The notes beneath the pieces were generated by a model. The model did not search any database, was not told where the DNA came from, and worked only from the letters and a program-made list of their open reading frames with translations. Shown here piece by piece: positions 23,151-61,717 of a stretch of 64,000 nt of DNA. The position numbers were made by a program, and so were the translations under genes. Within the stretch, counting starts at the first letter, position 1. Each line of letters begins with the position of its first letter. This DNA is from an uncultured Planctomycetales bacterium (GTDB lineage Bacteria > 4484-113). The DNA is taken from positions 3,699 through 67,698 of the forward strand of contig CAZKNJ010000004.1 of the NCBI GenBank assembly GCA_964554185.1. The letters are read 5' to 3'.

Positions 23151-23208
23151 ACTCCTAATCTGCCAGTGCCAAGTGGCACGGCCTCCATGCCAGCAGGAGG
23201 GAAGCGAC

Positions 23209-26200: not shown

Positions 26201-26667
26201 GCACCTGGGCTATTCACGTGGTGCACGACGTAGGCACACAAATCGGCTACAGGCTAACCCTGGCGGAGATTGACGGCAGGCCGGCCGTGGCCTATCGCTA
26301 TGTGTACGGTGATCCGCAGCAGCTTTGCTTCGCCATCTGCTCGACTGCCGACGGCTCCGGCGCCTGGACGATCTCGGTTGTTGATAGTTCACCTTCGTCC
26401 TTTGACTACCCTTCGCTCAAAGTCGTGGATGGTTATCCGACGATAGCCTACAGTGGGCAGGACGGGTTCTTGCTGTATGCAGTCAACACCATGGCGGACG
26501 CCAGCGGGGGGTGGGTGATCACTCCCATTGCGCATTCCGAGGGCGCAGTTTCGGTAACCAATCTAGCTGTCATTGACGGGTCGCCCGCGGTCAGTTACCA
26601 CGACAGCGGTCCCAGTATACTAGGACCTGAAGACGATTCCTTGAGATACGTCTATAAGGCTAGCTAG
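23209..26667 (+). CDS. large secreted/lipoprotein multidomain protein: dockerin-like repeats, 2x PKD, PQQ-type beta-propeller, BNR/Asp-box repeat propeller
   Basis: Signal/lipobox (LALCTC); dockerin-like Ca loops DYDQNGTVAIADITPIAMHF and DSSGNGKVDIADVTAIAMSF; two PKD-like segments (PLSVNFDASGSYDPDGSIETYDYDWEGDG; PLQVHFDGSGSTDDGTIVQYEWDWDGE); ~7 repeats G(T/S)VYVGS..LYA(I/V)..DGSL.W; C-terminal 6-8 Asp-box motifs S.ADGSG.W. Confidence 0.65.
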   Translation: MGTRGILHGVSCTLVVFVTTLALCTCEGGHHRSHPGLPGVVALDAARQAPVVLALDEVLAEIESHEAPEGVESTLYERLRDELARQLRLRAVGKIVCAPPTSEANRVNDLSVTDNGDGHYTLIWHYRNQGDYDQNGTVAIADITPIAMHFSEEVPEGDTQGNSLQAVIDSSGNGKVDIADVTAIAMSFGRECTAYAIERSLEEDGTYVEVATVPLSQASGEGRLAFSYGLYLTPGWVRVIPCDGAAAHGIASDPVRIPIAANQPPVAQLAADPEEGDMPLSVNFDASGSYDPDGSIETYDYDWEGDGSYELLDGGATPTHLYESAGEYNPTVRVKDDDSAESTASVAVAVWLGRGDWWMFGREPTHNHRSPYVGPQTNNVKWAYNTGAGIISSPVIGVDGTVYVGSGNALYAITSEGNLAWTYPTGGLVNAGPAIGRDGTVYAPCFDAYLYAIAPDGNLDWRYQMDMMAFSSPAIAEDGTIYVGNLDGNLYAINPDGSLKWRYETGGEVDSCPAIGPDGTVYVGSTDNYVYAIHADGSLSWRYKTGYLVYSSPAVYGGDTILVGSMDNKVYSLGTDGSFNWDYATGDPVNSGPAVGEDGTVYVGSTDNKLHALTPQGGFLWAFEAADRVDSSPAVGGDGTIYFGSYDGKAYAVNPDGSLLWEYPTGNKVSSSPAIAEDGTLYIGSWDGFLYAFRDDGITPPSASISADPTEGIAPLQVHFDGSGSTDDGTIVQYEWDWDGEANGWTWYDSGTDPLADHVYGEAGAYEAVLRVTDDDGATDTDSVLIEVSPNGWIVSVVDDTVGNDPLSSEVYNSLVEVDGRPGIAYYHVEDKQLKFALCSTADGTGDWDIQLVDGDADVGEYCSLAIINDLPAISYYDAYPNCDLKFAINSEPDASGIWAVQTVETEGYPGTPSSLAEVVGKPAMGYLDMPADEVSFARNSVSDGSGTWSFSVVDSFWSCQMRRCQMAVIAGKPGVVYFHGFDMQLKYAYSSLADGSGTWAIHVVHDVGTQIGYRLTLAEIDGRPAVAYRYVYGDPQQLCFAICSTADGSGAWTISVVDSSPSSFDYPSLKVVDGYPTIAYSGQDGFLLYAVNTMADASGGWVITPIAHSEGAVSVTNLAVIDGSPAVSYHDSGPSILGPEDDSLRYVYKAS

Positions 26668-37178: not shown

Positions 37179-37289
37179 GCGGTCGGTTGGTTGTGTTTAG
37201 AGACTACCGGGGCGCTGAGAAGTGGCCTGCGTGGTTGTGAAAGAGATTACTAGCCAACTGCAACATCGATTATTCCGGAGGACGTGAAA

Positions 37290-38540
37290 ATGGCTGAAGA
37301 ACTAAACCCGCGCCTGATGGCGCAGAAGCAGCTTGACGTTGCGGCCGAGCTGCTGGAATTGGACCGCGCCCAGCACAAGCGGCTGCGAGAGCCGCAGGTC
37401 GTCCTGGAAGTGTCGGTGCCGGTGAAGCTCGACGACGGACGGGTGGAGGTGTTCAAGGGCTGGCGCTCGCAGCACAACAACTTCCGCGGCCCCACCAAGG
37501 GCGGCGTGCGCTTTCACCCCGACACCTGCTACGACGAGGTGGTAGCGCTGTCTATGTGGATGACCTGGAAGTGCGCGCTGCTCAACCTGCCGTTCGGCGG
37601 CGGCAAAGGCGGCGTGCGCTGTAATCCTGCGGAGATGAGCATCGGGGAGATGGAGCGGCTTACGCGGCGTTACACTTTCATGATCAGCCCGATAATCGGG
37701 CCCGAGCGCGACATCCCCGCACCTGACGTCTACACCAATTCCCAGACAATGGCGTGGATGATGGACACCTACAGCATTCTGAAGGGCTACACCATTCCCA
37801 GCGTCGTGACCGGCAAGCCGCTGGACCTCGGCGGAAGCCAGGGACGCGTGGAAGCCACCGGACGCGGCTGCGTCATCTGCGTCCGCGAGGCGCTGAAGCA
37901 CCTGGGCATTGATCCGGCGACGACCACCGCAGCGGTTCAGGGCTATGGCAACGTCGGCTCCAACGCAGCGGTTCTGCTGGAGGAAATGGGCGTGAAGGTG
38001 GTGGCCGCGTCGGATGTGTTCGGTGCGATTCACTCCCCCGACGGGTTGGACACTCGCAAGCTCTGCGACCACGTGACCAAAACCGGCTCAGTAGTGAATT
38101 TCCCCGGCTCCTCTCCCATTTCGGCGGATGAGCTAATCGAAATGGAGGTGGATATCCTCGTTCCCGCTGCGTTGGAGAACGTCATCACCTCTAAGAACGT
38201 GGGCAAAATCAAAGCTAAGATTGTGTCCGAGGGCGCCAACGGCCCAACGACGCCAATGGCTGACAAGGTGCTGCACGAGAACGGCGTGTTCGTCGTCCCC
38301 GACATTCTGGCGAATGCGGGCGGCGTCACTGTCTCGTACTTCGAGTGGGTGCAGGACCTGTACCACTTCCAGTGGGATGAGGACCGCGTGAACAAGGAGC
38401 TGGAGAAGATGATGGTGAAGGCGTTCGCCGAAGTGCTGGCCGTCGCCCAGGAGAAGCGGGTGTGCAACCGCACCGCGGCTTACCTGCTGTCGGTTGCCCG
38501 GGTGGCACGTGCCGGCGCCGAACGCGGCATCTTCCCGTAA
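37290..38540 (+). CDS. gdh: glutamate dehydrogenase (small hexameric Glu/Leu/Phe/Val dehydrogenase family)
   Basis: KGGVRFHP..LSMWMTWKCALLNLPFGGGKGG catalytic Lys region; Rossmann GYGNVG; 416 aa. Confidence 0.85.
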   Translation: MAEELNPRLMAQKQLDVAAELLELDRAQHKRLREPQVVLEVSVPVKLDDGRVEVFKGWRSQHNNFRGPTKGGVRFHPDTCYDEVVALSMWMTWKCALLNLPFGGGKGGVRCNPAEMSIGEMERLTRRYTFMISPIIGPERDIPAPDVYTNSQTMAWMMDTYSILKGYTIPSVVTGKPLDLGGSQGRVEATGRGCVICVREALKHLGIDPATTTAAVQGYGNVGSNAAVLLEEMGVKVVAASDVFGAIHSPDGLDTRKLCDHVTKTGSVVNFPGSSPISADELIEMEVDILVPAALENVITSKNVGKIKAKIVSEGANGPTTPMADKVLHENGVFVVPDILANAGGVTVSYFEWVQDLYHFQWDEDRVNKELEKMMVKAFAEVLAVAQEKRVCNRTAAYLLSVARVARAGAERGIFP

Positions 38541-43338: not shown

Positions 43339-46300
43339 ATGCAACGAGTCTCAACACTTGCTGATTTCTCGAACCTCCGGCGGATGATTCTCGGAGAACC
43401 ACAGAAGGATATGCCATGTCTCGTCGTATGCGCGGGCACTGGTGGCCAGGCCAGCGGCTCCAACGACATCATCCGTATCATCAAGCGCCAGATCATTGAG
43501 AAGAGCTACCAGGAGCGCATGTCGCTGCGCATCACCGGCTGCCAGGGCTTCTGCGAGATGGACCCGTTCATTCTCGTGGAGCCGGCGCTCAACCTCTACC
43601 CGCTCTTGAAAATGGAGGATGTGCCGCGCGTGATTGACGCAGTGGCGCAGGGGCGCGTGCTGGAGGATCTGCTTTACAAGGGGACTGGCGAGCGGAAATG
43701 CTACCACTGCCAGAACGACATTCCCTTCTTTAAGAAGCAGACGCGCACCATCCTGGGGAAGAACGAGCAAATCGATCCTATCCGCCTGTACGACTACATC
43801 CGGTGCAATGGCTACGCTGCGCTGGAGAAAGTGCTGGAAGACCCCAAGCCGGGGTGGGTCATTGAGGAAGTGAAGCGCTCCGGCCTGCGCGGCCGCGGTG
43901 GCGCCGGATTCCCTACTGGAAAGAAGTGGGAGTTGGCGCGGGCTTCCGGCAACGGCGCGGGCCAGAAATACGTGGTCTGCAACGCGGACGAAGGTGACCC
44001 CGGCGCCTATATGGACCGCAGCCTGCTTGAAGGCAATCCGCACGCCATCATTGAGGGAATGCTCATCGCCGGCATCGCCATCGGCGCGACCAAGGGTTTC
44101 ATCTACGTGCGCAGCGAGTATCCATTAGCCATTAAGCACACGCTCATTGCGTTGCAGCAGGCCGGCGAGATGGGGCTGCTGGGCAAGAACATACTGGGCA
44201 CTGGCATCGATTTCGACATTGAGATCGTGCGCGGCGCCGGCGCGTTTGTCTGCGGAGAGGAAACCGCGCTCATAAGGTCAATTGAAGGACTCATGGGTGA
44301 GCCGCGCCAGCGCCCGCCTTACCCAATAGTGAAGGGCATCTGGGGCCATCCCACCTGCATCAATAACGTTGAGACCCTGGCGAATGTGCCGGTAATAATC
44401 CGTGACGGCGCGGACGAGTACGCCAAAGTCGGCGTGCCGGGCAACACCGGAACCAAGATATTCAGCCTGGTCGGCAAGATACGCAACACCGGCCTGGTGG
44501 AAGTCCCGATGGGAATCACCATCGGCGAAATCGTCTACGACATCGGCGGCGGCCCCGTGGGCGAGGCCAAGATCAAGGCGGTGCAGACCGGCGGGCCCTC
44601 CGGCGGCTGCATCCCCGCGAGCATGTTTGACCTGCCCATTGACTACGACAGCCTGACCAAAGCGGGCTCCATTATGGGCAGCGGCGGCATGATCGTGATG
44701 GACGAGAACACCTGCATGGTGGATGTCGCCAAGTACTTCATGGGCTTCCTGAAAGACGAGTCCTGCGGCAAGTGCTTCACCTGCCGCAAGGGCACGCAGC
44801 GGATGTGGGAGCTGCTGGACGACATCACCAAGGGGCGCGGCACGCTCGCCCACCTAGACTTGCTGGAGGAACTGGCGCTGGTGGTGAAGGACACCACCAT
44901 GTGCGGCCTGGGGCAGTCGGCGCCCAATCCCGTGCTCAGCACTCTCAAGTATTTCCGCGAGGAGTACGAAGAACATATTCTGGAGAAGCGCTGCCGCGCC
45001 TTCGTCTGCAAGGAGCTGGTGGGTGCGCCCTGCCAGACCGCCTGCCCGCTGGGCACCGAGGCCTGGCGCTATGTGGCGCACATCGCCCGGGGCGAATACG
45101 AGGACGCGTACACGGTTATCCGCGAAGCCAACCCCTTCCCCTCGGTGTGCGCCCGCGTGTGCAGCCACCCGTGCGAGAGCCACTGCCGCAGCGGCGTCGT
45201 GGGCACGCGCCCAATCGCCATCCGCGCGCTGAAGCGCTTCATCACCGACCGCATTGACCCGTCGGTGTACACGCCGAAGCGTGACCAGGCCAAGCGCCCG
45301 GAGCGTGTGGCCGTGGTCGGCTCCGGCCCGGCCGGAATGGCAGCCGCGCATTACCTTTCGCTCAAGGGCTATCCGGTGACCGTGTTTGAGGCGCTGCCGG
45401 AGCCGGGCGGGATGCTCATCAGCGGTATCCCCTCCTACCGGCTGCCGCGCGAAACTCTGCGCAAAGAAATCGCCTCGCTAGTGGACGAAAATGTGGCGGT
45501 TGAATGCGGCAAGGCGCTGGGCAAGGACTTCACAGTGGATGGCTTGTTCGGCGACGGCTATAAGGCGGTATTCCTGGCGATGGGCGCCCACAAGAGCCGC
45601 AAGCTCAATGTCGCGGGCGAAGACCTCAAGGGCGTCCATCCGGCGATTGAGTTCCTGAAAGCGTGGAACCTCCGCAGCGAGCAGCTTGCCACCGGCCACG
45701 TGGGCGTCATCGGCGGCGGGGACTCGGCGGTGGATGCTGCGCGCGTCGCGCTGCGCCAGCCCGGCGTGAAGAGCGTGACCATCTTCTACCGGCGCACGCG
45801 CAACGAGATGCCTGCGCTGGCGGAGGAAGTTGATGCGGCGCTGGACGAGGGCATTAAGCTGGAGGCGCTGGTCTCGCCGCTGAAGATACATGCGGAGATT
45901 GAAGAAGGCGTGCCCGGCGAGGAGCTGGAGACGCCGCTGAAGATGACCTCCAAGGAGGCCCGCGTCACCGGTGTGGACTTCATCCGCAACGAGCTGGGCG
46001 CGGTGGACGCCAGCGGCCGGCGCAATCCAGTGCCGCTCAAGGGCAGCGAGTTCACCGCCAAACTGGACACTCTTATCGTCACCATCGGCGACGTTCCCGA
46101 TATTGATTACGTGGCGGACATGGGCCTGGCCGTCAGCAAATGGGGCACTCTCGTCTGCGACGAAGACACTCTGCTGACTAGCCGCGAAGGCGTTTTCGCT
46201 GGCGGCGATGTCGTCACCGGTCCAAACACTGTGGTGGAAGCGATTGCAGCCGGCAAGAAAGCCGCCGTGATGATCCACCGCTTCCTGCGCAGCGAGCCGC

Positions 46301-46575
46301 TGAAGCAGCCCGCACAGGTGAAGCTGCCTGAGGTGCTGGTGGAGCCCGTGATGCTGGACGAGGAGGAGCTGGAGACCGCCGAGCGGGTGGAACCGCCGCG
46401 CATCGCGCCGGAACGCCGCGCGGCCGGCTTTGACGAGGTTGAGCTCACGCTCACGGTGGAGGACGCAACGCGCGAAGCCCGTCGCTGCTTGCGCTGCGAC
46501 CTGGAGTTCACCCAGCGGCGGTACGACGATGATGAGCTGGAAGCTCCCATCCCCGTGGAGAAGGTGGCCCGCTGA
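43339..46575 (+). CDS. NuoF-like NAD(P)H-binding FMN/4Fe-4S flavoprotein with N-terminal NuoE-like domain and C-terminal GltD-like FAD/NAD(P)-binding domain (triple fusion)
   Basis: N-term Cys pairs (PCLVVCAG, GCQGFCEM); NuoF core (GRGGAGFPTGKKW, VCGEETALIRSIEG, ESCGKCFTCRKGT); 2x Cys clusters (CQTACPLG.., CARVCSHPCESHC); Rossmann VAVVGSGPAGMAAAHYL and second GVIGGGDSAVD. Confidence 0.8.
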   Translation: MQRVSTLADFSNLRRMILGEPQKDMPCLVVCAGTGGQASGSNDIIRIIKRQIIEKSYQERMSLRITGCQGFCEMDPFILVEPALNLYPLLKMEDVPRVIDAVAQGRVLEDLLYKGTGERKCYHCQNDIPFFKKQTRTILGKNEQIDPIRLYDYIRCNGYAALEKVLEDPKPGWVIEEVKRSGLRGRGGAGFPTGKKWELARASGNGAGQKYVVCNADEGDPGAYMDRSLLEGNPHAIIEGMLIAGIAIGATKGFIYVRSEYPLAIKHTLIALQQAGEMGLLGKNILGTGIDFDIEIVRGAGAFVCGEETALIRSIEGLMGEPRQRPPYPIVKGIWGHPTCINNVETLANVPVIIRDGADEYAKVGVPGNTGTKIFSLVGKIRNTGLVEVPMGITIGEIVYDIGGGPVGEAKIKAVQTGGPSGGCIPASMFDLPIDYDSLTKAGSIMGSGGMIVMDENTCMVDVAKYFMGFLKDESCGKCFTCRKGTQRMWELLDDITKGRGTLAHLDLLEELALVVKDTTMCGLGQSAPNPVLSTLKYFREEYEEHILEKRCRAFVCKELVGAPCQTACPLGTEAWRYVAHIARGEYEDAYTVIREANPFPSVCARVCSHPCESHCRSGVVGTRPIAIRALKRFITDRIDPSVYTPKRDQAKRPERVAVVGSGPAGMAAAHYLSLKGYPVTVFEALPEPGGMLISGIPSYRLPRETLRKEIASLVDENVAVECGKALGKDFTVDGLFGDGYKAVFLAMGAHKSRKLNVAGEDLKGVHPAIEFLKAWNLRSEQLATGHVGVIGGGDSAVDAARVALRQPGVKSVTIFYRRTRNEMPALAEEVDAALDEGIKLEALVSPLKIHAEIEEGVPGEELETPLKMTSKEARVTGVDFIRNELGAVDASGRRNPVPLKGSEFTAKLDTLIVTIGDVPDIDYVADMGLAVSKWGTLVCDEDTLLTSREGVFAGGDVVTGPNTVVEAIAAGKKAAVMIHRFLRSEPLKQPAQVKLPEVLVEPVMLDEEELETAERVEPPRIAPERRAAGFDEVELTLTVEDATREARRCLRCDLEFTQRRYDDDELEAPIPVEKVAR

Positions 46576-47270: not shown

Positions 47271-48959
47271 ATGATGTGGACGACCTTTTCCAGAGTTAAC
47301 TCTTCGGCTGCAACCCTGACCAAGAACCGCACCGAGGGCTCGGTCACGCCGAGTTCCGGCATGTGCGTAACTTGCGTGGATGGCTGCATCGGTATGTGCG
47401 AAATCGGCAAGTCCGCCTACCGAGGGCACGAGGTCATCTACCCGCAGCCGTTCGGCGTGATAACGACCGCCGCGGAAAAAACCTACCCGGTGGACTACTC
47501 CCATTTCAACATCATGGGCACCGCCGTCGGGGCGCACGGCATTGAGGCCGATTCGGACAAGGCCGTGTTCCCGGCGGTGGACCTCACCGTAACCTTCGGC
47601 CACGACAACGGGCTGAAGTTCAAGCTGCCCATAATGATCCCCGGCATCGGCTCCACCAACATCGCCAAGAACAACTGGGAGGGCCTGGCCATCGGCACCG
47701 CGCTGGCGGGCACCGGCCTGACCATCGGCGAGAACGTGGTGGGCATGGATCCCGAATCGACCATCAAGAACGGCCGGGTGGTGGATACGGTGGACCTCAA
47801 GCGCCGGGTGAAGCTGTTTACCGACCACCAGCGCGACGGCTGGGGCGCCATCATCGTCCAGTCCAACATCGAGGACACGCGGCTGGGGGTGCAGGAGTAC
47901 GCCATCGGCGAGCTGGGCGTGGAATGTGTGGAGCTTAAGTGGGGGCAGGGCGCCAAGGACATCGGCGGCGAGGTCAAGATCCGCGAGCTGAAGAAGGCCC
48001 AGCTGCTCTACGAGCGCGGCTATGTAGTGCTGCCAAACCCGACCGACCCCAATGTGATAAAGGCCTTTGAGCGCGGCGCGTTCAAGGAGTTTGAGCGCCA
48101 CTCGCGCGTGGGCATGGTCACGGAAGAGGGCTTCGCCCAGCGGGTGGACGAGCTGCGCAAAGCCGGCGCCAAGTACATCTTCCTCAAGACCGGCGCCTAC
48201 CGGCCGGCCGACCTCGCGCGCGCGGTGAAGTACGCGTCCAAGTACCGCCTTGACCTGCTCACCGTGGACGGCGCGGGCGGCGGCACCGGCATGAGCCCCT
48301 GGCGCATGATGAACGAGTGGGGCGTCCCGCCGGTGGAACTGCACTCGCTGCTCTACGAATACTGCAAGGAGCTGCACGACCGCGGCGAGCACGTTCCCGC
48401 CGTCACCGTCGCCGGCGGCTTCACCTTTGAGGACCAGATGTTCAAAGGCCTGGCGCTGTGCGCGCCGTTCGCCAAGCTAATCGGCATGGCGCGCAGCCCC
48501 ATCGCCGCCGCGATGGTAGGCAAGACCATCGGCCGCACGATTGACCAGAACCAGGTGCCGGTGTACGTTGAGCGGTTCGGCAACACGAAGGACGAGATAT
48601 TCGTCACCGCGGCCGACCTGCGCCACGAGCTGGGCGACGACGAGTTTGAGCGCATCCCGACCGGCGCGCTGGGCCTCTACACCTACTACGAGCGGCTCGC
48701 GCAGGGCCTGCGCCAGTTGATGGCGGGCAACCGCAAGTTCGCCCTGAAGTACATTGAGCGCGACGACATCGCGGCGCTGACGCACGAGGCGGCCGACATC
48801 AGCGGTATCACCTACATCATGGACGTGGACAAGGCCGAGGCAGCGAAGATACTCGGCGCCAACGGCAAGGGCTCAAAGAAGGCTGCGGCGTCGGCGAAGC
48901 CCGCCGCCAAGAACGACGGCAAGCGCACACCGGCTTCCAAGTCCGGCGCGAAGAAGTAA
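47271..48959 (+). CDS. archaeal-type GltB: glutamate synthase FMN-binding (domain 2) family protein with N-terminal Cys cluster
   Basis: CVTCVDGCIGMCEIG N-terminal cluster; TIM-barrel FMN domain signatures incl. DGAGGGTGMSPW (cf. GGTGASP of GltS); C-terminal Lys/Ala-rich tail. Confidence 0.65.
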   Translation: MMWTTFSRVNSSAATLTKNRTEGSVTPSSGMCVTCVDGCIGMCEIGKSAYRGHEVIYPQPFGVITTAAEKTYPVDYSHFNIMGTAVGAHGIEADSDKAVFPAVDLTVTFGHDNGLKFKLPIMIPGIGSTNIAKNNWEGLAIGTALAGTGLTIGENVVGMDPESTIKNGRVVDTVDLKRRVKLFTDHQRDGWGAIIVQSNIEDTRLGVQEYAIGELGVECVELKWGQGAKDIGGEVKIRELKKAQLLYERGYVVLPNPTDPNVIKAFERGAFKEFERHSRVGMVTEEGFAQRVDELRKAGAKYIFLKTGAYRPADLARAVKYASKYRLDLLTVDGAGGGTGMSPWRMMNEWGVPPVELHSLLYEYCKELHDRGEHVPAVTVAGGFTFEDQMFKGLALCAPFAKLIGMARSPIAAAMVGKTIGRTIDQNQVPVYVERFGNTKDEIFVTAADLRHELGDDEFERIPTGALGLYTYYERLAQGLRQLMAGNRKFALKYIERDDIAALTHEAADISGITYIMDVDKAEAAKILGANGKGSKKAAASAKPAAKNDGKRTPASKSGAKK

Positions 48960-50257: not shown

Positions 50258-51616
50258 TTAGACGACGCCCTGATCCATCATCGCGTTGGCGACCTTTAGG
50301 AAGCCGGCGATGTTGGCGCCGTTGACATAGTTGCCCGGCGTGCCATAGGCCTCGGCGGTCTCAAAGCACGCCTTGTGGATTGAAATCATGATGTTGTGGA
50401 GCTTCTCGTCCACTTCGTTGCGCGTCCAGGAAGTGTGCCCCGCGTTCTGCGCCATCTCCAGGCCGCTGGTGGCCACGCCGCCGGCGTTGGCCGCCTTGCC
50501 CGGGCCGTAGAGGATCTTCTTCGCGACGAAGTGCTCAACGCCTTCCGGCACCGTGGGCATATTGGCGCCCTCGCTGACGACAAACACGCCGTTCTTGACC
50601 AGCGCTTTGGCGTCGTCCACCGAAACCTCGTTCTGGGTGGCGCTGGGGAAGGCGCACTGCGCACCCTCAACCTGCCACACGCCGGTGCCTTCGTGGAACT
50701 CGCACTTGTACTTCGCGGCATACTCCTTGATGCGGCCGCGCTTGACGTTCTTCAGCTCCATCACGTACGCGAGCTTCTCCTCGTTGATACCATCGCGGTC
50801 AACAATGAAGCCAGCGGAGTCGGAGAGGGTGATGCATTTCCCGCCGAGGTGGCTGACCTTCTCCACGGTGTACTGCGCGACGTTGCCGGAGCCGGAGACC
50901 AGGCAGGTCTTGCCTTTGACGCTGTCGCCGCGGGTGCGCAGCATTTCCTCCGCGAAGTACACCGCGCCGTAGCCGGTGGCCTCCGGGCGGATGAGGCTGC
51001 CGCCCCACGCCAGGCCCTTGCCGGTCAACACGCCCTCAAAGCGGTTGACGATGCGCTTGTACTGGCCGAACAGGAAGCCGATCTCGCGCCCGCCCACGCC
51101 GATATCGCCGGCGGGGATGTCGGTGCGGCCGCCGATGTGGCGGAAGAGCTCCGTCATGAAGCTCTGGCAGAAGCGCATAACCTCTCTATCGGACTTGCCC
51201 TTGGGGTCGAAGTCGGAGCCGCCCTTGCCGCCGCCGATGGGGATGGTGGTCAAAGCGTTCTTGAAAACCTGCTCAAATCCCAGGAACTTGAGAATGCCCA
51301 GATTTACTGTAGGGTGGAAACGCAATCCGCCCTTGTACGGGCCGATCGCGCTGTTGAATTCCACGCGGAAACCGCGGTTAACCTGAACACGCCCCTCATC
51401 GTCCGTCCAGGGCACACGGAACAGAATCACGCGCTCCGGCTCCACGATGCGCTCGAGAATCCGCGCTTCTTTGTATTCCGGGTGCCGTTCCAGCGCCAAC
51501 TCCAGCGATTCCACGACCTCGCGTACGGCCTGGTGGAACTCCTTTTCGCCGGGATTCTTGGCGATTAAGCCCTCCATGAAGGAGTCAACCCACTGTGACA
51601 TTCGGAAGACCTCCAA
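50258..51616 (-). CDS. gdhA: NADP-specific glutamate dehydrogenase (large ~450-aa GdhA type)
   Basis: IPIGGGKGGSDFDPKGKSD catalytic region, Rossmann GSGNVAQY; 452 aa (alt start at MSQW, 51601). Confidence 0.85.
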   Translation of the reverse strand: MEVFRMSQWVDSFMEGLIAKNPGEKEFHQAVREVVESLELALERHPEYKEARILERIVEPERVILFRVPWTDDEGRVQVNRGFRVEFNSAIGPYKGGLRFHPTVNLGILKFLGFEQVFKNALTTIPIGGGKGGSDFDPKGKSDREVMRFCQSFMTELFRHIGGRTDIPAGDIGVGGREIGFLFGQYKRIVNRFEGVLTGKGLAWGGSLIRPEATGYGAVYFAEEMLRTRGDSVKGKTCLVSGSGNVAQYTVEKVSHLGGKCITLSDSAGFIVDRDGINEEKLAYVMELKNVKRGRIKEYAAKYKCEFHEGTGVWQVEGAQCAFPSATQNEVSVDDAKALVKNGVFVVSEGANMPTVPEGVEHFVAKKILYGPGKAANAGGVATSGLEMAQNAGHTSWTRNEVDEKLHNIMISIHKACFETAEAYGTPGNYVNGANIAGFLKVANAMMDQGVV

Positions 51617-54047: not shown

Positions 54048-57000
54048 CTAGCCGCTTGAAGTACTGCTTTGATTGCCTGCGGCCGCGATTGTCGCCGCGA
54101 GGTATGCTTCCACGTATTGGGAAATGTTACTTATCTTCGCCAGTTGCGTTTCCAGCGAGACAAACTGGTTGCGCAGCCGGGTCTCGTAGGTTGACAGGCT
54201 CTCCTCGGCGCGGCTGATGGAGTCCTGATAGTTTAGTATCTGCTTATCAAACGCGCCGCCGGTGCGCAGCCGCTCAAATATGGCGCCTTGAATGCCCGTC
54301 TGGTTCTGCACATACTTGCGCGTCCGCGCGGCGGTGCCCCCGTACACAAACGGGTCAATGCCCAGGTAGGAGCCCGGCTGGACGCCCAGCCGGGTGAGCA
54401 GCGAATCACCGCCGTAGGATAGGTCGGAGAAAGAAATTTCCGCCGAGCGGTCAGTGCGGGTGGAGGTGAAGTTCAGCAAGTAGTTGGCGTCGTAGTACGG
54501 CAGGATGCTGTTACCCAGACCGGCTTCCGCCAGCGCCGAGCTGATGCGGTTGAGCACAGTAGATGCGTTGTAGGCTCCAGGAGTGAAGCGCACTTCCGCA
54601 GTAGTGCCGCTGCCGTCGCCGACGGTGAAGCGCAGGCTGGTGCCCACGGAGATGCCGCCCGAGAGGTCGGCGCTGCCGGTGGCGGTGACGCGGCTCTGCA
54701 CCGCGGTGGCGAAGAGCTTGTACACATCGTCGGCATTGTCGCTCAGAGCGCTCAGCAACACCTGATTGCCGCGCAGGCTCGCTTCCAGTATTCCGCGGTC
54801 GGTGGTCGTCGACAGCAACATGCCTCTGTTCTCGCGGGCCTCGTCCGCACTCGCGCCAACGCTGGAGGTGGTCATTCCAAGCTGGGCGATTGAGCGGTAG
54901 GCCCCCTCGTTGCTCACGAGGCCGAGTATCATCTCGCGGATCTTCCGCGCGATAGCGCGCATGCCGGAGTCGCGCGAGACGAAGTCGCGCTGGCGGAGCT
55001 CGTTGCGCCGCGTGTTGTACGCGTCTATCTCGTCCAGCGACATCGTCGCCAGCGCGTCGTCGTCCAGCGGCACCAGCTCTTCGCGCTCGCTTTTCGTCAG
55101 CGGCGGCTGGTTCACCAGGTCTATCGCCGTGTTGTACTCCACTATGAAGTCCAGCAGCGCGGTAATGGCCTTCTCGGTGTCCGCCGCCACGTCAACCGTG
55201 ACGGGGCTGGAGGTGGCTCCCTGGAGGTTGAAGGTCACACCACCTACGATGTCGCTTACCGTGTTGGTCGCGCGGGTGTATTCCACGTCGTCAACTGTGA
55301 ACACCGCGTCCTGGCGCTCGCTGCCGACATCCCATGAATACGCGGTGTAGGGCAGCAGGCGCATCGCGGCGAGGAAGCTGCTCGTGTCGGTCGCAGAGCC
55401 AACCTTGATCTGTGTGGCCGTCGGGTTCTTGCTGAGATCCTGGCGCAAGACGAACTTGTCGGCAGCCTCGTCGTATGACGCAATGACGCCGGCCTGCGAG
55501 CGGTTGATGCGGTCAATAACATTGTTGAGGCTGTCCACTCCGGCGTCCACATAGATGGCAACCCCGTTGATGGTGAAGACGCCGGAAGTGGGGGTGACGG
55601 TCAGGCCGCCTTCGGAGAGGGGCACGGTGGGGCTGGCTTTGCGGTCGGACTGCCCGGCGATGGCGTATCCGCCCGCGTCGTCCGTCACCCCGAGTATGGT
55701 CCACAGATTGCTGGTGTTGCCCGCGCCGCCGAAAGTGAAGCCGGAGGAGCTGTTGTCGTTGCGCTCCATGACGAAGCGGTTCAGCGCGCCGTCGTAGCGG
55801 ATAGTCACACCCGCGCCGCTGGAGTTAATCTGCGCCATCACCTCGTGCACCGTGGTGGCAGTGACATCACCCACGGTGATGGACACGCCGTTAATCACCA
55901 GAGTGCCGTCGGTATGATTGCCGGGGCTGGCGGAGGAGTTCTGCGGAGTGAGGGCGAAGCCCGCAGTGGCTAGCGATGCGTATATGTCTATCGGGGGAAC
56001 CTTGGTGGTTGGCGAGGATGCGATGTTAGCGGCACCGAAGCGCACGGAACTCATCGCAGGGCTGGTGTTGAGCACGTCGTACTTGCCCGTGATGGCGACA
56101 GCGACGCCGTTCCCCGGTGACAGCGCGTTGACCGTAGCGCCGATAATGAGGCGCGTAGTGTTTGTATTGTCCACACCGGTCGCCGCCGTCCTGACGGTTG
56201 CGCCACCAGTAGTCTGCTGGGTCGCCGTCATCGTGTAGTGGGCGTTACTGGAAGACGCCGCAAACGTGTTGGTGCCGTCGTCCGTTGAGCTCTGGAGGTC
56301 CGTCGCGCCGATGGAAAACAGCGTATCCAGTATTCCGCCCAGGCCGTCAATCGCGCGGACGTCGCGGCCGCCGGCGTTCGCCTGTATCTCCAGCCGGTAG
56401 CTGCCAGACACGGAGACCAGCTGCGCCGTGACCGTCGGCACCTGCGCATTTATTGCGTCCACGAGGTCCTGCACCGACGAATCCGCGCTCAGCCCCTGGA
56501 TGAGGATGAACTCCTGCGAGCCGGCGCCGTCGGGGTCTATCGCCAACTGGTTAAACACGGTGATGCCGTAGGAGCCCAGAGTGTTGCTGGGGTCAAGGAC
56601 AGTGGTTGAGCCGTAGAGCCGCCCAGCCTTGCCCTGGGTGCCCGAAATGAAGTACTTGCCGGTGACCTCCACCGCGAAGGGGCCGGTGGTAATCACCTGG
56701 GCGGTCTGGGCCGCGCCTGCGCGCGTGGTGATGAAGCTCCCGGCGGCGAAGCTGGTGGTGTTGGGCCCACCGTCCACGAAGCTCAGGCTGATGGCGGTCT
56801 GCGAAGCTCCGCCAGCGCTGTCGGTGAGCACCAGCCGTCCGCTGTCCAGCGTCAGCGTGGCGTTGGTGTACGCGCCGTTGACGCCCGCGAGGAACTGCGC
56901 CAGCGTGGTGCCGGTGACGCCGTAGGTGAAATCGTAGGTGCCGGTGCCGCCGTTGATCAGCGAGCCGTCCGGGTTGGTGCCGGTGATGCGGATGATGTCG

Positions 57001-57923
57001 CCGCTGTCCAGCGTGCCGGTTATCTGGTCAAGGGTGGCGATATCGGTGGCGCCGGTGGCGGGTGCGCCGCCTACCGTGTATGTCTTTGTATTGGTTAGCT
57101 GCTGCGCCACCGCGCCGGCGCCCGCGCGCGCATTGCCTGCGCCGATGGTAAGCGTGCTACCGGAGTAGTCGTTGTCGTGGAACTGGATGCCGTAAGGCAA
57201 GACGGTGGTGTTGAAGGTGATGTCGCCCGCCACGGTGGGATCGGCCTCGGTGAGGACAATCTCGCCACGCTGGCCGATGGAAGCGGTAACTTCCCCCTGG
57301 AAAACCGACGTAATCGTCTGCGCCAGCCGCCCCAGAGTGTCGGTGGTGTCGCCCGCAAAGGTGAACGTGCCCGAAACCGCGGTGCTGTCTTTGAGGTTGC
57401 CGGAGATGGTAATGGTGTCGCCGGCGGTGATGGTGGCGGAGCCGATGCCCGCCTGCACCGTGTCCTTGATGAGCGTGCTCGTGGTGGCGCCGCGCGTCTG
57501 GTAGGTGCCGTTCACCGTAATGGAGTTGATGCCTGCCGTATTGGTGGGCGGCAGGTACACGCTGCGCGTGATCAGATTCCCGCTCACGCCCGAGGATACC
57601 CGTGAAGCGCGGGCTAGCTGGGAAACGGTAATGCTGTGCGACCCGATGGAAGCGCCGACTCCGCCGGTGGCGGACACCAGATTGTCCGCAGACGAAGTGA
57701 CCAGGCGGCTGTTGAAAGTGGCCTCCAGCGTGAGGTTGAACAGCATGTTGTTGAACCGCAGAAGCTGCGAGTTCACCGACTGGACGACCGACCGGTTGAA
57801 CACCAGGTTGTCGCGCGCCTGCTCCATCGCCTGGATGGGGCCGCGCCGCAGCTGCACGAGCTCTGAAATGATCGCGTTTGCGTCAATCCCTGATTGCAGT
57901 CCAAGGAACTGAATGGTTCCCAT
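54048..57923 (-). CDS. fliD: giant flagellar filament cap protein FliD (HAP2) with ~900-aa Thr/Gly/Ser-rich central insertion
   Basis: ATG 57923 8 nt after AGGAGG (GTG 57932 would overlap the SD); N-term GLQSGIDANAIISELVQLRRGPI and C-term YETRLRNQFVSLETQLAKISNISQYVEAYL match FliD termini; internal repeats of FTINGV.I.V....DSL..VI..IN.SQAGV.ASYD. Confidence 0.75.
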   Translation of the reverse strand: MGTIQFLGLQSGIDANAIISELVQLRRGPIQAMEQARDNLVFNRSVVQSVNSQLLRFNNMLFNLTLEATFNSRLVTSSADNLVSATGGVGASIGSHSITVSQLARASRVSSGVSGNLITRSVYLPPTNTAGINSITVNGTYQTRGATTSTLIKDTVQAGIGSATITAGDTITISGNLKDSTAVSGTFTFAGDTTDTLGRLAQTITSVFQGEVTASIGQRGEIVLTEADPTVAGDITFNTTVLPYGIQFHDNDYSGSTLTIGAGNARAGAGAVAQQLTNTKTYTVGGAPATGATDIATLDQITGTLDSGDIIRITGTNPDGSLINGGTGTYDFTYGVTGTTLAQFLAGVNGAYTNATLTLDSGRLVLTDSAGGASQTAISLSFVDGGPNTTSFAAGSFITTRAGAAQTAQVITTGPFAVEVTGKYFISGTQGKAGRLYGSTTVLDPSNTLGSYGITVFNQLAIDPDGAGSQEFILIQGLSADSSVQDLVDAINAQVPTVTAQLVSVSGSYRLEIQANAGGRDVRAIDGLGGILDTLFSIGATDLQSSTDDGTNTFAASSSNAHYTMTATQQTTGGATVRTAATGVDNTNTTRLIIGATVNALSPGNGVAVAITGKYDVLNTSPAMSSVRFGAANIASSPTTKVPPIDIYASLATAGFALTPQNSSASPGNHTDGTLVINGVSITVGDVTATTVHEVMAQINSSGAGVTIRYDGALNRFVMERNDNSSSGFTFGGAGNTSNLWTILGVTDDAGGYAIAGQSDRKASPTVPLSEGGLTVTPTSGVFTINGVAIYVDAGVDSLNNVIDRINRSQAGVIASYDEAADKFVLRQDLSKNPTATQIKVGSATDTSSFLAAMRLLPYTAYSWDVGSERQDAVFTVDDVEYTRATNTVSDIVGGVTFNLQGATSSPVTVDVAADTEKAITALLDFIVEYNTAIDLVNQPPLTKSEREELVPLDDDALATMSLDEIDAYNTRRNELRQRDFVSRDSGMRAIARKIREMILGLVSNEGAYRSIAQLGMTTSSVGASADEARENRGMLLSTTTDRGILEASLRGNQVLLSALSDNADDVYKLFATAVQSRVTATGSADLSGGISVGTSLRFTVGDGSGTTAEVRFTPGAYNASTVLNRISSALAEAGLGNSILPYYDANYLLNFTSTRTDRSAEISFSDLSYGGDSLLTRLGVQPGSYLGIDPFVYGGTAARTRKYVQNQTGIQGAIFERLRTGGAFDKQILNYQDSISRAEESLSTYETRLRNQFVSLETQLAKISNISQYVEAYLAATIAAAGNQSSTSSG

Positions 57924-57943
57924 AGGAGCCACCTCCTAGATAT

Positions 57944-57951
57944 TTATCGGC
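57944..57951 (-). promoter_or_regulatory. sigma-28-type -10 element (GCCGATAA) in front of fliD
   Basis: minus strand reads gttGCCGATAAatatctAGGAGGtggctcctATG; no good TAAA -35. Confidence 0.3.
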
Positions 57952-57972
57952 AACGCGCGCGTTAAGGGCAGC

Positions 57973-58002
57973 GCCGGCAGGCCGTGGGCTCGGCCTGCCG
58001 GC
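57973..58002 (-). terminator. hairpin (11-bp stem) between fliC and fliD; partial terminator/attenuator
   Basis: gccggcaggccg-tgggct-cggcctgccggc; weak U-tract downstream on minus strand. Confidence 0.35.
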
Positions 58003-58032
58003 ATATCCCTGAAGCGCCTCGGTCGAGGCTGC

Positions 58033-60753
58033 TTATCTGAGTAGTTGCAGCACCGCTTGCGGCAGCTGGTTCGCCTGCGCCAGTGCGGCGGTGCCCGCCT
58101 GCAGGAGTATCTGCAGCCGGGTGGCGGTCAGCGTCTCAAGCGCGATGTCAGCGTCGCGGATGCGTGACTCGGACGCGGTGAGGTTCTCCGATGCGACGTC
58201 CAGGTTGCGGATGGTAGCTTCCAGCCGGTTCTGAATGGCGCCGAGAGCCGAGCGTTGCCCGTTCACCCGGGCGATGGCCTCGTCAACCGCCGTGATGGCC
58301 TCCTGTGCGAGGTCTTCGCTGACCAGCAGAATACCCCTCACGCCCATCGCTTCCGCCGACAGGTCGGCGATGAAGGTGCGCATCTGCTGCCCCTGGTTGG
58401 GGCCGATCTGCAGGATGAAGTCGCGCGGGGCGACATGGATGAACTGGGTCTGGGTTTGGGTGCTGTAAGACAGCTCGGGCCGCTCAGTCGGCAGGACATA
58501 GGGGAAGGTTGCGAAGGAGTTCACCCCTCCCAGCGGCGGCTGCGGATCCAGCACTACGCCCTGGCTGTTGTCAAAGAACAGCCGCAGCCCCGGCAGCAGG
58601 CCAACAATCTCGTTGCTGTCCGTGCGCACGGTGGCGGTGGACTTGCCTGTCTCAATGTTAACTGCGGACACGGAATACACTGGCGACAGCGGTGACTGAA
58701 TCTCGGTCAGGCCGAGCGCCTTGAGTAGCTTCTCGTCGCCGCTGAAGACGACCTGTGCGCCGGGCAGCGGCGTGGTGATGGATATCGTGCCGCGTGCCAG
58801 CCCCAGCACGTTCACATGCGCGATGTCTGGCGGCTGATTCAGGTTGACTGCACTCTCCAGGTTCAAGTCGCTGGTCAAGCTCGGGTTGTACATCGCCAGC
58901 GAGATCTTGCCGGTGACGTCCTCCAGCGTGTCGTTGGGCGTGATGTTCACGTGCACGTAACGGCCGGAGCCGCGGAGGTAGATCTTGAAGTCCACGCTGC
59001 TGCGTCCATCAAACACCCCCATATCCTGGAAACGGCTGATGGAGCCCAGCGTGGTGAGCTGGTCCGCCGGCACAACCGCGTTCGGGCTGACGTTGAACAC
59101 GGCGGTCTCGCCCGCCTGGAAGATGGCGTCAAACGAGATCTTGATGCCCGTCAGCTCCACAATGTCGTTGCGGCGGTTGGCCGTCTCGGAAAGCGAGAAG
59201 AGCTGAATGCCGGCGGCAACCGGGTCGGCGTCAATCTGGCTGCCCTTGGACGCTTCAATCGCCATCTGCTTGTCGTAACCCGAGCGAATCAGGCTGGTGT
59301 ACGCCGAGTTGTTGAAAGAGTAGAGCGCATAAGTGCGGTTGGACGCCGTGGAGATGAGGAAGGAACCTGACCGCGCCACCGGTGCGGTCTGCCAGACGCG
59401 GCCGAACTTCTGGAGGTGGTTCACCCCCTCCTTCTCGTGCATCGTCAGCACATCCGACTGGCCGACGTTGCTGGCCGCCGCGCGAGTGGACAGCCGCACA
59501 TGCAGCGCGCCCACGGTGGGATCGCCAATGCTGAACGGCGTGCCGCCGATCAGCGCATTGGCCGTGCCCACCGAGCCGATGTAGGTGCCGCCGGTGTTCG
59601 TGATCTCGTAGTTCGCGGATGAGTGGAACTGATTGGTCACGAAGTCCGCGCCGGACGCACCCACGCTGACGTAAAACTTGCTTCCGCTCTCGTCCACATC
59701 ATTGAAGGAGATGCGCGTGAGTGAAGCCCCCAGGCCGGCGGTGGTTACCGACAAGGCGCCGGAGGCCGTCACCAATACGGCGGAGCCGCTGCCTACGCTG
59801 AACGTGTCGTACAGGACGGTGATGGCGCTGGAGACCCGCGCCGCCAGCAGTGCGAGCGTGTCTCCGCCCGCGTCAAGCAAGACGTTTGCCGTGCTCCCAT
59901 CGCTGAACATGAACGTAAGGGTGTCCACGCCAGTAGTGAGTTCCTGCGCCTGAATCAGGGTGGAGACAGCAGCACCTCCCGCTGCGTTGTTAAGGGCCAG
60001 CAAAGCGAAGCTGGTGGAGCCGTTTTGCAGGATGGTCTGGCCATCCGCCGTGGGCGGGACAACCAGCTCTGCCAGTCCGCTGTTGCCGATACCGCTGTTG
60101 TTAGCGGTGGTGAGTGAGACGTGGGCCGTGTAAGTGGTCAGATAGTTGATCTGGCCGACGGCGTCGGTCGTCTGGAGGGTGTTGAAGACGTTGGTCTTCT
60201 GCACCTGCAGTTGCCCGGAACCAACTACCGGGCGCAACTCCAGCATGAAGTTGCCGCCTTCGCCCACGTTTCCCACAACGGCTGCCCTCAATAGCAGCGG
60301 ATTGTCGGTGGACACAAGCGCTCCCAGCGTGCCATCCAGGAGTTTCCTTGTGTTGAACTCGGTGGTCTGCGCGATACGGTCAATCTCCAGAATCAACTGG
60401 TCCACCTCATCCTGAATAGCAATCCGGTCGTTACTCGTGTAGATACCGTTGGCCGCCTGCACTGCCAGCTCGCGAATGCGCTGCAGGATTGCTCCGGTCT
60501 CGTTTAGCGCGCCTTCCGCCGACTGAATCAGCGAGATGCCGTCCAGGGCGTTGGCGGACGCGCGGTCCAGCCCGCGAATCTGCGAGCGCAGCTTCTCCGA
60601 GATGGAGAGGCCGGCCGCATCATCCGCCGCGCGGTTGATGCGCAAACCCGATGAGAGCCTCTCCAGCGAACGCGCAAGCAACGAGCCAGTAGCCGAGAGG
60701 TTGCGGGCAGCGTTGAGGGCAACCACATTGTGGTTGATGCGAAGAATACTCAT
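58033..60753 (-). CDS. fliC: giant flagellin (906 aa) with ~630-aa hypervariable central region
   Basis: N-term SILRINHNVVALNAARNLS..LERLSSGLRINRAADDAAGLSISEKLRSQIRGL and C-term SALGAIQNRLEATIRNLDVASENLTASESRIRDADIA..LTATRLQILLQAGTAALAQANQ are canonical flagellin D0/D1; RBS AGGAGG 7 nt upstream. Confidence 0.88.
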   Translation of the reverse strand: MSILRINHNVVALNAARNLSATGSLLARSLERLSSGLRINRAADDAAGLSISEKLRSQIRGLDRASANALDGISLIQSAEGALNETGAILQRIRELAVQAANGIYTSNDRIAIQDEVDQLILEIDRIAQTTEFNTRKLLDGTLGALVSTDNPLLLRAAVVGNVGEGGNFMLELRPVVGSGQLQVQKTNVFNTLQTTDAVGQINYLTTYTAHVSLTTANNSGIGNSGLAELVVPPTADGQTILQNGSTSFALLALNNAAGGAAVSTLIQAQELTTGVDTLTFMFSDGSTANVLLDAGGDTLALLAARVSSAITVLYDTFSVGSGSAVLVTASGALSVTTAGLGASLTRISFNDVDESGSKFYVSVGASGADFVTNQFHSSANYEITNTGGTYIGSVGTANALIGGTPFSIGDPTVGALHVRLSTRAAASNVGQSDVLTMHEKEGVNHLQKFGRVWQTAPVARSGSFLISTASNRTYALYSFNNSAYTSLIRSGYDKQMAIEASKGSQIDADPVAAGIQLFSLSETANRRNDIVELTGIKISFDAIFQAGETAVFNVSPNAVVPADQLTTLGSISRFQDMGVFDGRSSVDFKIYLRGSGRYVHVNITPNDTLEDVTGKISLAMYNPSLTSDLNLESAVNLNQPPDIAHVNVLGLARGTISITTPLPGAQVVFSGDEKLLKALGLTEIQSPLSPVYSVSAVNIETGKSTATVRTDSNEIVGLLPGLRLFFDNSQGVVLDPQPPLGGVNSFATFPYVLPTERPELSYSTQTQTQFIHVAPRDFILQIGPNQGQQMRTFIADLSAEAMGVRGILLVSEDLAQEAITAVDEAIARVNGQRSALGAIQNRLEATIRNLDVASENLTASESRIRDADIALETLTATRLQILLQAGTAALAQANQLPQAVLQLLR

Positions 60754-60858
60754 GCGCTTATCCTCCTTGATAAGACTTCATATTTCCTGAGTCGAGCGTC
60801 CCTGCTCGTGTCAGGAGCCCCTTCTTTCGGCGCAGGAAAGATGGGTAGCCAACTAGGT

Positions 60859-60885
60859 TTATCGGCGGCCGCGGCGGCGGCTTTA
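60859..60885 (-). promoter_or_regulatory. sigma-28 (FliA) promoter, perfect TAAA-N15-GCCGATAA, for fliC
   Basis: minus strand: TAAAgccgccgccgcggccGCCGATAA; ~100-nt leader to fliC ATG. Confidence 0.7.
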
Positions 60886-60916: not shown

Positions 60917-61717
60917 GTGCGGAATCGGCAGAACATCACGGTGGTAATTCTCGGCATGGCGCTGCTCATCGCGCTGCTGGCGGTGTCGTGCAAGCAAAAG
61001 CCCACGGAAGAGAAGGGCGCGCCGGCGGCGAAGAAGCAAGCCCCGGCTGGCATCGGTGCAAACGAGACGCTGGGCTTCCCCCTCAAGCTGGGCGAGCGCT
61101 TCCAGCTGCAGGAACTCACGAAGAAGCTCGCGCGCGCGGACTTCCCGGTGCAGGTGGCGGCGGAGGATGCAACCGACCGGCTCGTGCCCGGCACGCTGGG
61201 CGACGGCACGCTGTACTTCTTCCTCACGCCCGACCCGCGCACGCCCGAGCTGGTCGGTGGGCTGAAGGTCAGCGTGGATCTGGACACGGCCAAGGCGGTC
61301 GGCCTTATCACCGAGGAGCGGCGCAATGATCTGGTGCAGGAAGCGCGGGCGAAGGCTGATTCTATGTCGGCCGACGACACGTTCCTGGCGCGCTACACCG
61401 CGGCGGAGGCGCAGCTGGCAGCCGCACGCAATCCCGAGGTGGCGCGGACGGCCGAAGGCCTGGGCATTGGCTCAGCCAAGGCTGATCTCATCGCCGCCTA
61501 CGGCGAGACCAAGGACATGGCGTTCGAGTCGGGCGACACCACGCTCATTTACCGCGGCAAGGACGCCGCCGTGGCCTTCCGGCTGACGCTGGGCGTGGTG
61601 CGCTCCGTAACCGTCTTCCCGCCGGATTACGACTACTTGCAGTTCCTGGAAGACACTGCCGCCGTGCTGAGCGGCAAGCCCATTGAGCCGCGGGAGGGGG
61701 AAGGCGCAGGGGAATAA
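60917..61717 (+). CDS. putative lipoprotein, function unknown
   Basis: GTG start; signal MRNRQNITVVILGMALLIALLAVSC (lipobox L-A-V-S-C); 266 aa. Confidence 0.5.
   Translation: MRNRQNITVVILGMALLIALLAVSCKQKPTEEKGAPAAKKQAPAGIGANETLGFPLKLGERFQLQELTKKLARADFPVQVAAEDATDRLVPGTLGDGTLYFFLTPDPRTPELVGGLKVSVDLDTAKAVGLITEERRNDLVQEARAKADSMSADDTFLARYTAAEAQLAAARNPEVARTAEGLGIGSAKADLIAAYGETKDMAFESGDTTLIYRGKDAAVAFRLTLGVVRSVTVFPPDYDYLQFLEDTAAVLSGKPIEPREGEGAGE

Follow-up and report, generated by a model that had tools for sequence, protein, structure and literature searches.

The window analysed here is a 64-kb stretch of DNA from an uncultured Planctomycetales bacterium (assembly GCA_964554185.1, contig CAZKNJ010000004.1, positions 3,699 to 67,698), and the gene in question is fliC, an open reading frame (ORF) with an ATG start in the window's ORF list, which encodes a flagellin of 906 amino acids (aa) on the minus strand and has the filament cap gene fliD directly downstream. 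The insert between the conserved ends of this flagellin can be resolved into a proximal platform shared with other flagellins and a distal block restricted to one lineage, part of which is related to the repeat unit of the FliD of that lineage. It is probable that the protein is a structural flagellin of three layers, transcribed by sigma-28, whose outer layers were nested from pre-existing flagellar modules and which is assembled under a co-enlarged FliD cap. The gene and its parts are as follows.

58033..60753 (stop codon included), minus strand: fliC, flagellin, with Pfam, NCBIfam and PDB flagellin matches
60328..60753, minus strand: residues 1-142, N-terminal D0/D1 helices of the filament core (PF00669 at 6-142)
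60154..60327, minus strand: residues 143-200, N-terminal half of the proximal outer platform (region profile)
59071..60153, minus strand: residues 201-561, lineage-specific distal block nested in the platform loop (region profiles, insertion classes)
59653..59943, minus strand: residues 271-367, FliD-repeat-like module with hairpin, 'DTLxxLAxxI' helix, strands and 'F-x-D-x-D-x-SGS' (hhalign)
58450..59070, minus strand: residues 562-768, C-terminal half of the proximal outer platform (profile match to PDB entry 9AU6)
58033..58449, minus strand: residues 769-906 and stop, C-terminal D1/D0 helices (PF00700 at 820-905)

Both ends of the protein are those of a flagellin. Flagellin_N (PF00669) covers residues 6-142 at E=1.4e-44 (152 bits against a cut-off of 26.6) and Flagellin_C (PF00700) residues 820-905 at E=2.4e-25 (89 bits against 23), while a conserved D1 motif, 'LQIGxNQGQ', occupies residues 781-789; flagellin models of NCBIfam score 180-278 bits, and PDB flagellins are matched down to E=5e-74. 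Because full-length homologs are 41-100% identical and an orthologous locus (L001) has the same flagellin-fliD order, fliC is a real gene rather than a chance ORF in high-GC DNA. Its 906-aa product is a genuine flagellin, for which polymerisation into a filament is the predicted role. These results bear out an initial annotation, made from the sequence alone, that described a 906-aa flagellin with canonical D0/D1 termini, and its figure of ~630 aa for the central domain is consistent with the ~625 aa of outer region given by the D1 structural limits (about 143-768), the distance between the two Pfam domains being 677 aa. Its estimate that the insert is about three times the typical hypervariable size holds against Salmonella D2/D3, and the Thr/Ser/Gly/Ala richness it described is present to a moderate degree, with S+T+G+A amounting to 38% across the insert and 45% in residues 201-561. 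The label "giant", however, does not apply, since the published definition is >1000 aa (Thomson 2018, PMC6248924) and a protein of 906 aa is large only; the relatives P0018 (1134 aa), P0048 (1104 aa) and P0049 (1600 aa) do exceed that length.

Region-specific profiles divide the insert into a proximal module and a distal block. The proximal module (residues 143-200 plus 562-about 768) recurs in flagellins of 542-1600 aa, and the profile of residues 143-200 matches flagellins of 542-1134 aa, among them P0041 and other Geovibrio-type proteins as well as P0030/P0033 (542 aa). At the insertion point between the two halves of this platform, three length classes of 0-10, 236-265 and 323-590 aa can be distinguished: in P0030 and P0033 (542-543 aa) the two halves of the proximal module follow one another without an insert, Geovibrio-type flagellins (758-795 aa) carry 236-265 unrelated residues, and the family of the window flagellin carries 323-590 aa. 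Among further relatives, P0048 and P0049 have the same proximal platform with ~570 aa and ~1100 aa between the halves, and P0018 contains the first ~220 aa of the distal block twice. Judging by such relatives, the loop of the platform seems to be a general hotspot for insertion.

The homology of the platform was established with a family-only profile of residues 562-768, which finds residues 458-637 of the Geovibrio thiophilus flagellin 9AU6 as its top PDB match at E=7.7e-9; the family profile reaches P0041 at 2e-23. In a single-sequence search of residues 562-800 against the PDB, 9AU6 appears at an insignificant E=0.14; the full-length score of 9AU6 is therefore carried largely by D0/D1, and the family-only profile test was used instead. 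The 9AU6 residues that align suggest that the shared platform corresponds to Geovibrio D2/D3. Within the C-terminal half of the platform, a hairpin-helix motif, 'FKIYLRGSGRYVHVNITPNDTLEDVTGKISLA' (residues ~588-618; 58900-58992, minus strand), gives weak matches to ubiquitin; poly-ubiquitin chains score E=1.3e-4 with the family profile, but no single stretch is significant. This ubiquitin likeness may reflect a beta-grasp-like supersecondary structure in a recurrent flagellar module.

The region profile of the distal block matches the close family only. Within the block, residues 271-367 align to residues 167-268 of FliD in hhalign comparisons with the profile of a 31-member FliD family alignment (probability 88-90%, E=1.8-2.9e-6 with two flagellin alignments), and a second FliD repeat matches the same module at E=4.5e-4. 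The hairpin, the 'DTLxxLAxxI' helix and the 'F-x-D-x-D-x-SGS' motif are common to the aligned flagellin and FliD segments, and the controls remain at E=0.14 (reversed FliD profile) and E=0.22-0.78 (15 column shuffles). At the level of sequence profiles, this comparison demonstrates that residues 271-367 share ancestry with the FliD repeat unit. PF07196 (Flagellin_IN) matches neither the window flagellin nor the distal blocks of 19 family members, even at E<=1-10.

An AF2 model of the 361-aa distal block, predicted from a 19-sequence alignment, is compact and beta-rich with 3-4 helices (pLDDT 78.5, pTM 0.78); the full-length prediction (15 sequences) had a pLDDT of 48 and was not used for fold searches. 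With the distal model, Foldseek returns nothing from the PDB at E<=1e-3, the best matches being the D2-D3 heads of FliD, which are weak (E about 7e-3, TM<0.3), and a fold search of BFVD gives no match. That the top matches to the entire distal model are FliD heads, that the platform is homologous to 9AU6 and residues 271-367 are FliD-like, that residues 241-346 weakly resemble residues 544-669 in profile-profile comparison (E=0.009), and that P0018 shows the distal block capable of duplication would all suit an insert that contains no fold beyond those of ordinary flagellar outer domains (D2/D3-like and FliD-like modules), reused throughout by duplication and nesting. Such a composition is nevertheless unlikely, given that residues 368-561 (~190 aa) match neither self, FliD nor Geovibrio profiles, nor any other family searched, that the structural matches to FliD are weak, and that self-BLAST detects no repeats in fliC or fliD, repeats having surfaced only by profile-profile comparison. 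The initial annotation had itself named an insert of ordinary D2/D3 domains in tandem without an added fold as evidence against its view, and such evidence is found in part: ~265 aa belong to the platform shared with Geovibrio and ~100 aa resemble the FliD repeat, so that a large share of the insert consists of reused flagellar domains, but the arrangement is nested rather than tandem, and the ~190 aa of residues 368-561 have no detectable relative.

The main rival explanation takes the distal block, and especially its conserved residues 368-561, to be a functional display domain, be it an adhesin, a lectin, an enzyme or a binding module, of which each filament would expose thousands. It can point to a segment that lacks detectable relatives yet holds the best-conserved distal stretch (residues 461-480, column identity 0.78), with invariant columns that include T474, Y475, A476, F480, N482 and Y485, and to functional precedents among flagellin outer domains, namely flagellinolysin (PMC7643111) and an aminopeptidase-like cluster (PMC11532411). 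This explanation is quite unlikely, since the protein contains neither HExxH nor cysteine anywhere, Pfam scans of the insert alone (even at E<=10) and of the distal blocks of 19 family members match no family, a search of PDB sequences with the distal profile finds no relative, and the Foldseek results lead to FliD heads. The flagellinolysin model NF033876 scores 64.6 bits against a cut-off of 205, with its best-scoring stretch at residues 770-836, around the C-terminal D1 boundary. Moreover, packing between subunits, of which the D4/D5 contacts of Geovibrio are an example, would explain the conservation equally well. With no motif, family or fold in their favour, readings of the insert as an enzyme, adhesin or protease were rejected. 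The proposal in the initial annotation that the filament displays enzymatic or adhesive surface domains thus finds no support, and the search it recommended of the insert against enzyme and adhesin families matched no Pfam family; its remark that the insert lacks HExxH holds for the whole protein.

The preferred reading of a structural three-layer flagellin also draws on the cap protein, whose gene is located as follows.

54048..57932 (GTG start, 1294 aa), minus strand: fliD, filament cap protein (Pfam); more likely start at ATG 57923, giving 1291 aa

FliD_N and FliD_C fall at 14-109 and 874-1267 of the window FliD. The ATG at 57923 is a more plausible start than the GTG at 57932 chosen by the ORF finder because AGGAGG-N8 precedes it, and the resulting 1291 aa agree with homolog lengths of 1290-1291 aa. 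About 30 clusters of FliD homologs at 36-90% identity all have 1283-1294 aa, and many FliD homologs of the lineage carry PF07196; the FliD reference models matched, with 440-672 positions, are far shorter than the window FliD. An internal tandem repeat is evident in hhalign self-comparison (E=1e-24, offset ~140 aa), and in sequence terms it is this repeat from which the extra FliD length comes. The cap is enlarged as consistently as the flagellin, which hints at co-evolution of cap and filament size. A literature search retrieved no report of a FliD enlarged in step with its flagellin, and FliD is not mentioned by Thomson et al. (PMC6248924).

A bolder proposal joins the two proteins: residues 368-561 would constitute a new functional surface domain, either a ligand-, mineral- or cell-binding module or a lattice-forming unit by which the outer layer is fastened into a continuous protein sheath, and the 1291-aa tandem-repeat FliD would have co-evolved to chaperone the three-layer subunit. 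Its probability is low. If it were true, filament and cap would form a matched pair that shares and exchanges modules, and the idea of domain transfer from FliD to flagellin would be directly testable within a single lineage.

Several regulatory features accompany the two genes.

60859..60885, minus strand: sigma-28 (FliA) class-III flagellar promoter, TAAA-N15-GCCGATAA, exact consensus
60761..60766, minus strand: ribosome-binding site GGAGGA, 7 nt before the fliC ATG (read from the sequence)
57965..58034, minus strand: pair of GC-rich hairpins that directly follows the fliC stop and lacks a U-tract (RNA fold)
57944..57951, minus strand: second exact GCCGATAA (sigma-28 type -10 element) in front of fliD, with a poor -35 (read from the sequence)

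The fliC promoter, read on the minus strand as TAAA-gccgccgccgcggcc-GCCGATAA (60885..60859), lies ~105 nt upstream of the ATG; no other site in the 64-kb window fits the consensus even if 1 mismatch is tolerated, where 0.09 would be expected. In related genomes, sigma-28-like sites with <=2 mismatches precede 15 of 29 paralog starts. The pair of hairpins 3' of fliC has a folding energy of -50.7 kcal/mol (z=-4.3, with 0/200 shuffles as stable) and may act as an attenuator, a partial terminator or an mRNA stabiliser that sets the fliC:fliD ratio. The second GCCGATAA might be the sigma-28-type -10 element of fliD.

The window flagellin is not a one-off but represents the usual flagellin type of its lineage, as relatives, loci and paralogs share it. 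A search with the insert alone yields 17 clusters, almost all of them flagellins of 880-950 aa with 41-100% identity across the whole insert, and an exhaustive phmmer search of 1.84 billion (1.84e9) representatives yields 54 proteins at E<=1e-3, of which 13 are at E<=1e-30. Among these representatives, distal block 201-561 is confined to ~30 proteins from UBP7/UBP7_A-type metagenome genomes, and in contigs sampled at one genome per species, 25 loci were found, all from metagenome-assembled genomes (MAGs) labelled UBP7, UBP7_A, 'Planctomycetales bacterium' or 'bacterium'. One of these loci, L001 (93% identical over the region searched), keeps the arrangement of a 906-aa flagellin and a 1293-aa FliD, and the complete genome CP060262.1, obtained from saline activated sludge, has five flagellin paralogs at three loci, three of them in tandem. 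The tandem trio (L012, 3475-12673) consists of three ~900-aa flagellin genes with a mutual identity of 74-98% depending on region, and the dispersed paralogs of the same genome (L011, L023) share only ~50% identity with the trio in the distal block. A literature search on UBP7 flagella returned nothing relevant.

Across the family, mean pairwise identity declines from 0.77 in D0/D1 through 0.64 in the platform to 0.45 in the distal block, a core-to-distal gradient that fits the radial order envisaged for the three layers. The outer region can be aligned end to end with fixed length, both across genomes and among paralogs, and is not hypervariable in the enterobacterial sense. Its net charge, computed from the sequence, is -18 in the window flagellin, lies between -13 and -47 across the family and is negative in all members.

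The presence of ~5 paralogs at 3 loci in related genomes, together with a further paralog in the closest MAG (L002), 56% identical across the region searched, means that subunits may be specialised, and the window protein could accordingly be a minor flagellin (tip- or hook-proximal, or condition-specific) or a FlgL-like junction protein rather than the main propeller subunit. This is very unlikely. Every flagellin in the lineage loci is of the same type and ~880-950 aa long, although these loci were chosen by an outer-domain query that shorter flagellins elsewhere would escape; flagellin models score far above FlgL (278 against 97 bits, the latter under the TIGR02550 cut-off of 127); and the gene has a perfect class-III promoter with a strong ribosome-binding site.

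Apart from fliC and fliD, the 64-kb window contains no further flagellar genes, and the remainder has housekeeping roles: complex I, AspRS, GluRS, two glutamate dehydrogenases, ZnuABC, Wzz/Wza and two-component regulators. No Maf or pseudaminic-acid-type flagellin-glycosylation genes occur within it. A glycosylation island near fliC was considered and rejected, as the neighbours are a dihydroorotate dehydrogenase, a glutamate dehydrogenase, a 3D-domain protein and unannotated ORFs, and the polysaccharide-export genes at 15-19 kb were likewise rejected as flagellin-glycosylation candidates, being of the Wzz/Wza type and not of the Maf/pseudaminic-acid type. Divergent from fliC lies a 266-aa ORF (60917-61717, plus strand) without a Pfam match and with a lipoprotein-like N-terminus (…LLAVSCKQ), and L001 has a 259-aa ORF (3107-3886) at the equivalent position. 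Further away, a 1078-aa fusion (43339-46575, plus strand) combines a NuoF-like part (Complex1_51K, NADH_4Fe-4S, SLBB) with a GltD-like pyridine-nucleotide-disulphide oxidoreductase half and adjoins a Glu_synthase-domain protein (47271-48959). A 1164-aa protein with PKD domains and PQQ/BamB-like beta-propeller repeats (23173-26667, plus strand) is probably secreted or surface-located, and the two glutamate/leucine-type dehydrogenase paralogs (37284-38540, plus strand; 50258-51616, minus strand) are <=13 kb apart.

In the preferred reading of a structural three-layer flagellin, the canonical D0/D1 helices would form the filament core; the second layer would be the proximal outer platform (143-200 and 562-768), which shares homology with a portion of the Geovibrio outer region, and the third the 361-aa distal block (201-561) nested in the platform loop. 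At the point occupied by this block, Geovibrio-type flagellins carry an unrelated distal region of ~250 aa, presumably D4/D5, and the 542-aa relatives nothing. The distal block would have grown by recruiting pre-existing flagellar modules, and in it the FliD-repeat-related residues 271-367 are linked to a beta-rich domain of ~190 aa peculiar to the family. Both outer layers would be structural and not catalytic, and the filament, by analogy with the 240 Å filament of the 793-aa 9AU6 protein, is expected to be thick, at least 24 nm as for Geovibrio, with a negatively charged surface. Its assembly would take place under the ~1291-aa FliD cap, which consists of tandem copies of the same kind of module.

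Part of the significance of the system lies in a shared platform with a single insertion hotspot that, depending on the relative, is empty or holds ~250 aa, ~360 aa or at least 590 aa. The relationship of the inserted module to the FliD repeat of the same lineage supports the view that filaments grew as flagellar genes recombined with one another. The window flagellin leaves the concept of the flagellum as it was, and UBP7_A-type bacteria, which occur in activated sludge, can be nominated as a target for cryo-electron microscopy of filament and cap.

Flagellin outer domains span a wide and for the most part unexplored range of structures: 682 clusters have been counted, the majority of which lack an experimental structure (Fields et al. 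2024, PMC11532411). The nearest known system is the G. thiophilus flagellin 9AU6, a protein of 793 aa with outer domains D2-D5 that belongs to 'cluster #41' of the same study. In 9AU6, D2/D3 lie at a radius of ~80 Å and the dimerising D4/D5 at ~120 Å, and the filament, negative at its surface, measures 240 Å across; D5 is a copy of D4 that sits within one of the D4 loops, and D4 is related to FliD D2 (PMC11532411). Among PDB entries, 9AU6 matches the window flagellin best overall (E=5e-74), and when the outer platform is taken by itself no other entry matches significantly (profile E=7.7e-9 for 9AU6). Both proteins have a nested, multi-domain, beta-rich outer region with the same distal insertion point and a net negative charge, and in both there is evidence for distal domains derived from FliD-type modules. 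They differ in the distal region itself, which has ~250 aa in Geovibrio and 361 aa in the window flagellin: the two distal profiles have no detectable relation (hhalign E=0.33), the distal profile of the window family gives no 9AU6 match at E<=10, and 9AU6 is absent among the 50 Foldseek matches listed for the distal model. Similarly, the Geovibrio-type distal profile does not match the FliD of the window's lineage (E=0.32), whereas module 271-367 of the window flagellin does match the FliD repeat. The proximal outer domains of cluster #41 are therefore homologous in the window flagellin, whereas no homology was found for the D4/D5 beta-sandwich pair.

Other known systems offer more limited parallels. 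The flagellinolysin family (NF033876) also consists of flagellins with a large non-canonical central region, but the window flagellin has no HExxH and falls well below the family cut-off. The D2-D3 heads of FliD (PDB 5XLK, 5H5W) are the best Foldseek matches to the distal model, and residues 271-367 align to the FliD repeat, although the structural match is weak (TM<0.3) and the window flagellin reaches no PF07196 score. The giant flagellins of Bermanella marisrubri and Oleibacter marinus (PMC6248924) likewise have an enlarged outer region with an expected thick filament, and resemble the window family in stepwise growth via internal domain duplication and a further inserted segment. They differ in being gammaproteobacterial, longer than 1000 aa and built of 'DE' regions with a 'DX' insert, the window flagellin remaining under that cut-off, and none was seen among the 54 significant phmmer matches, which carry no organism names. 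Taken together, these comparisons place the window flagellin as an uncharacterised example of a known phenomenon, the large multi-domain flagellins on a Geovibrio-type platform, rather than as a new kind of system.

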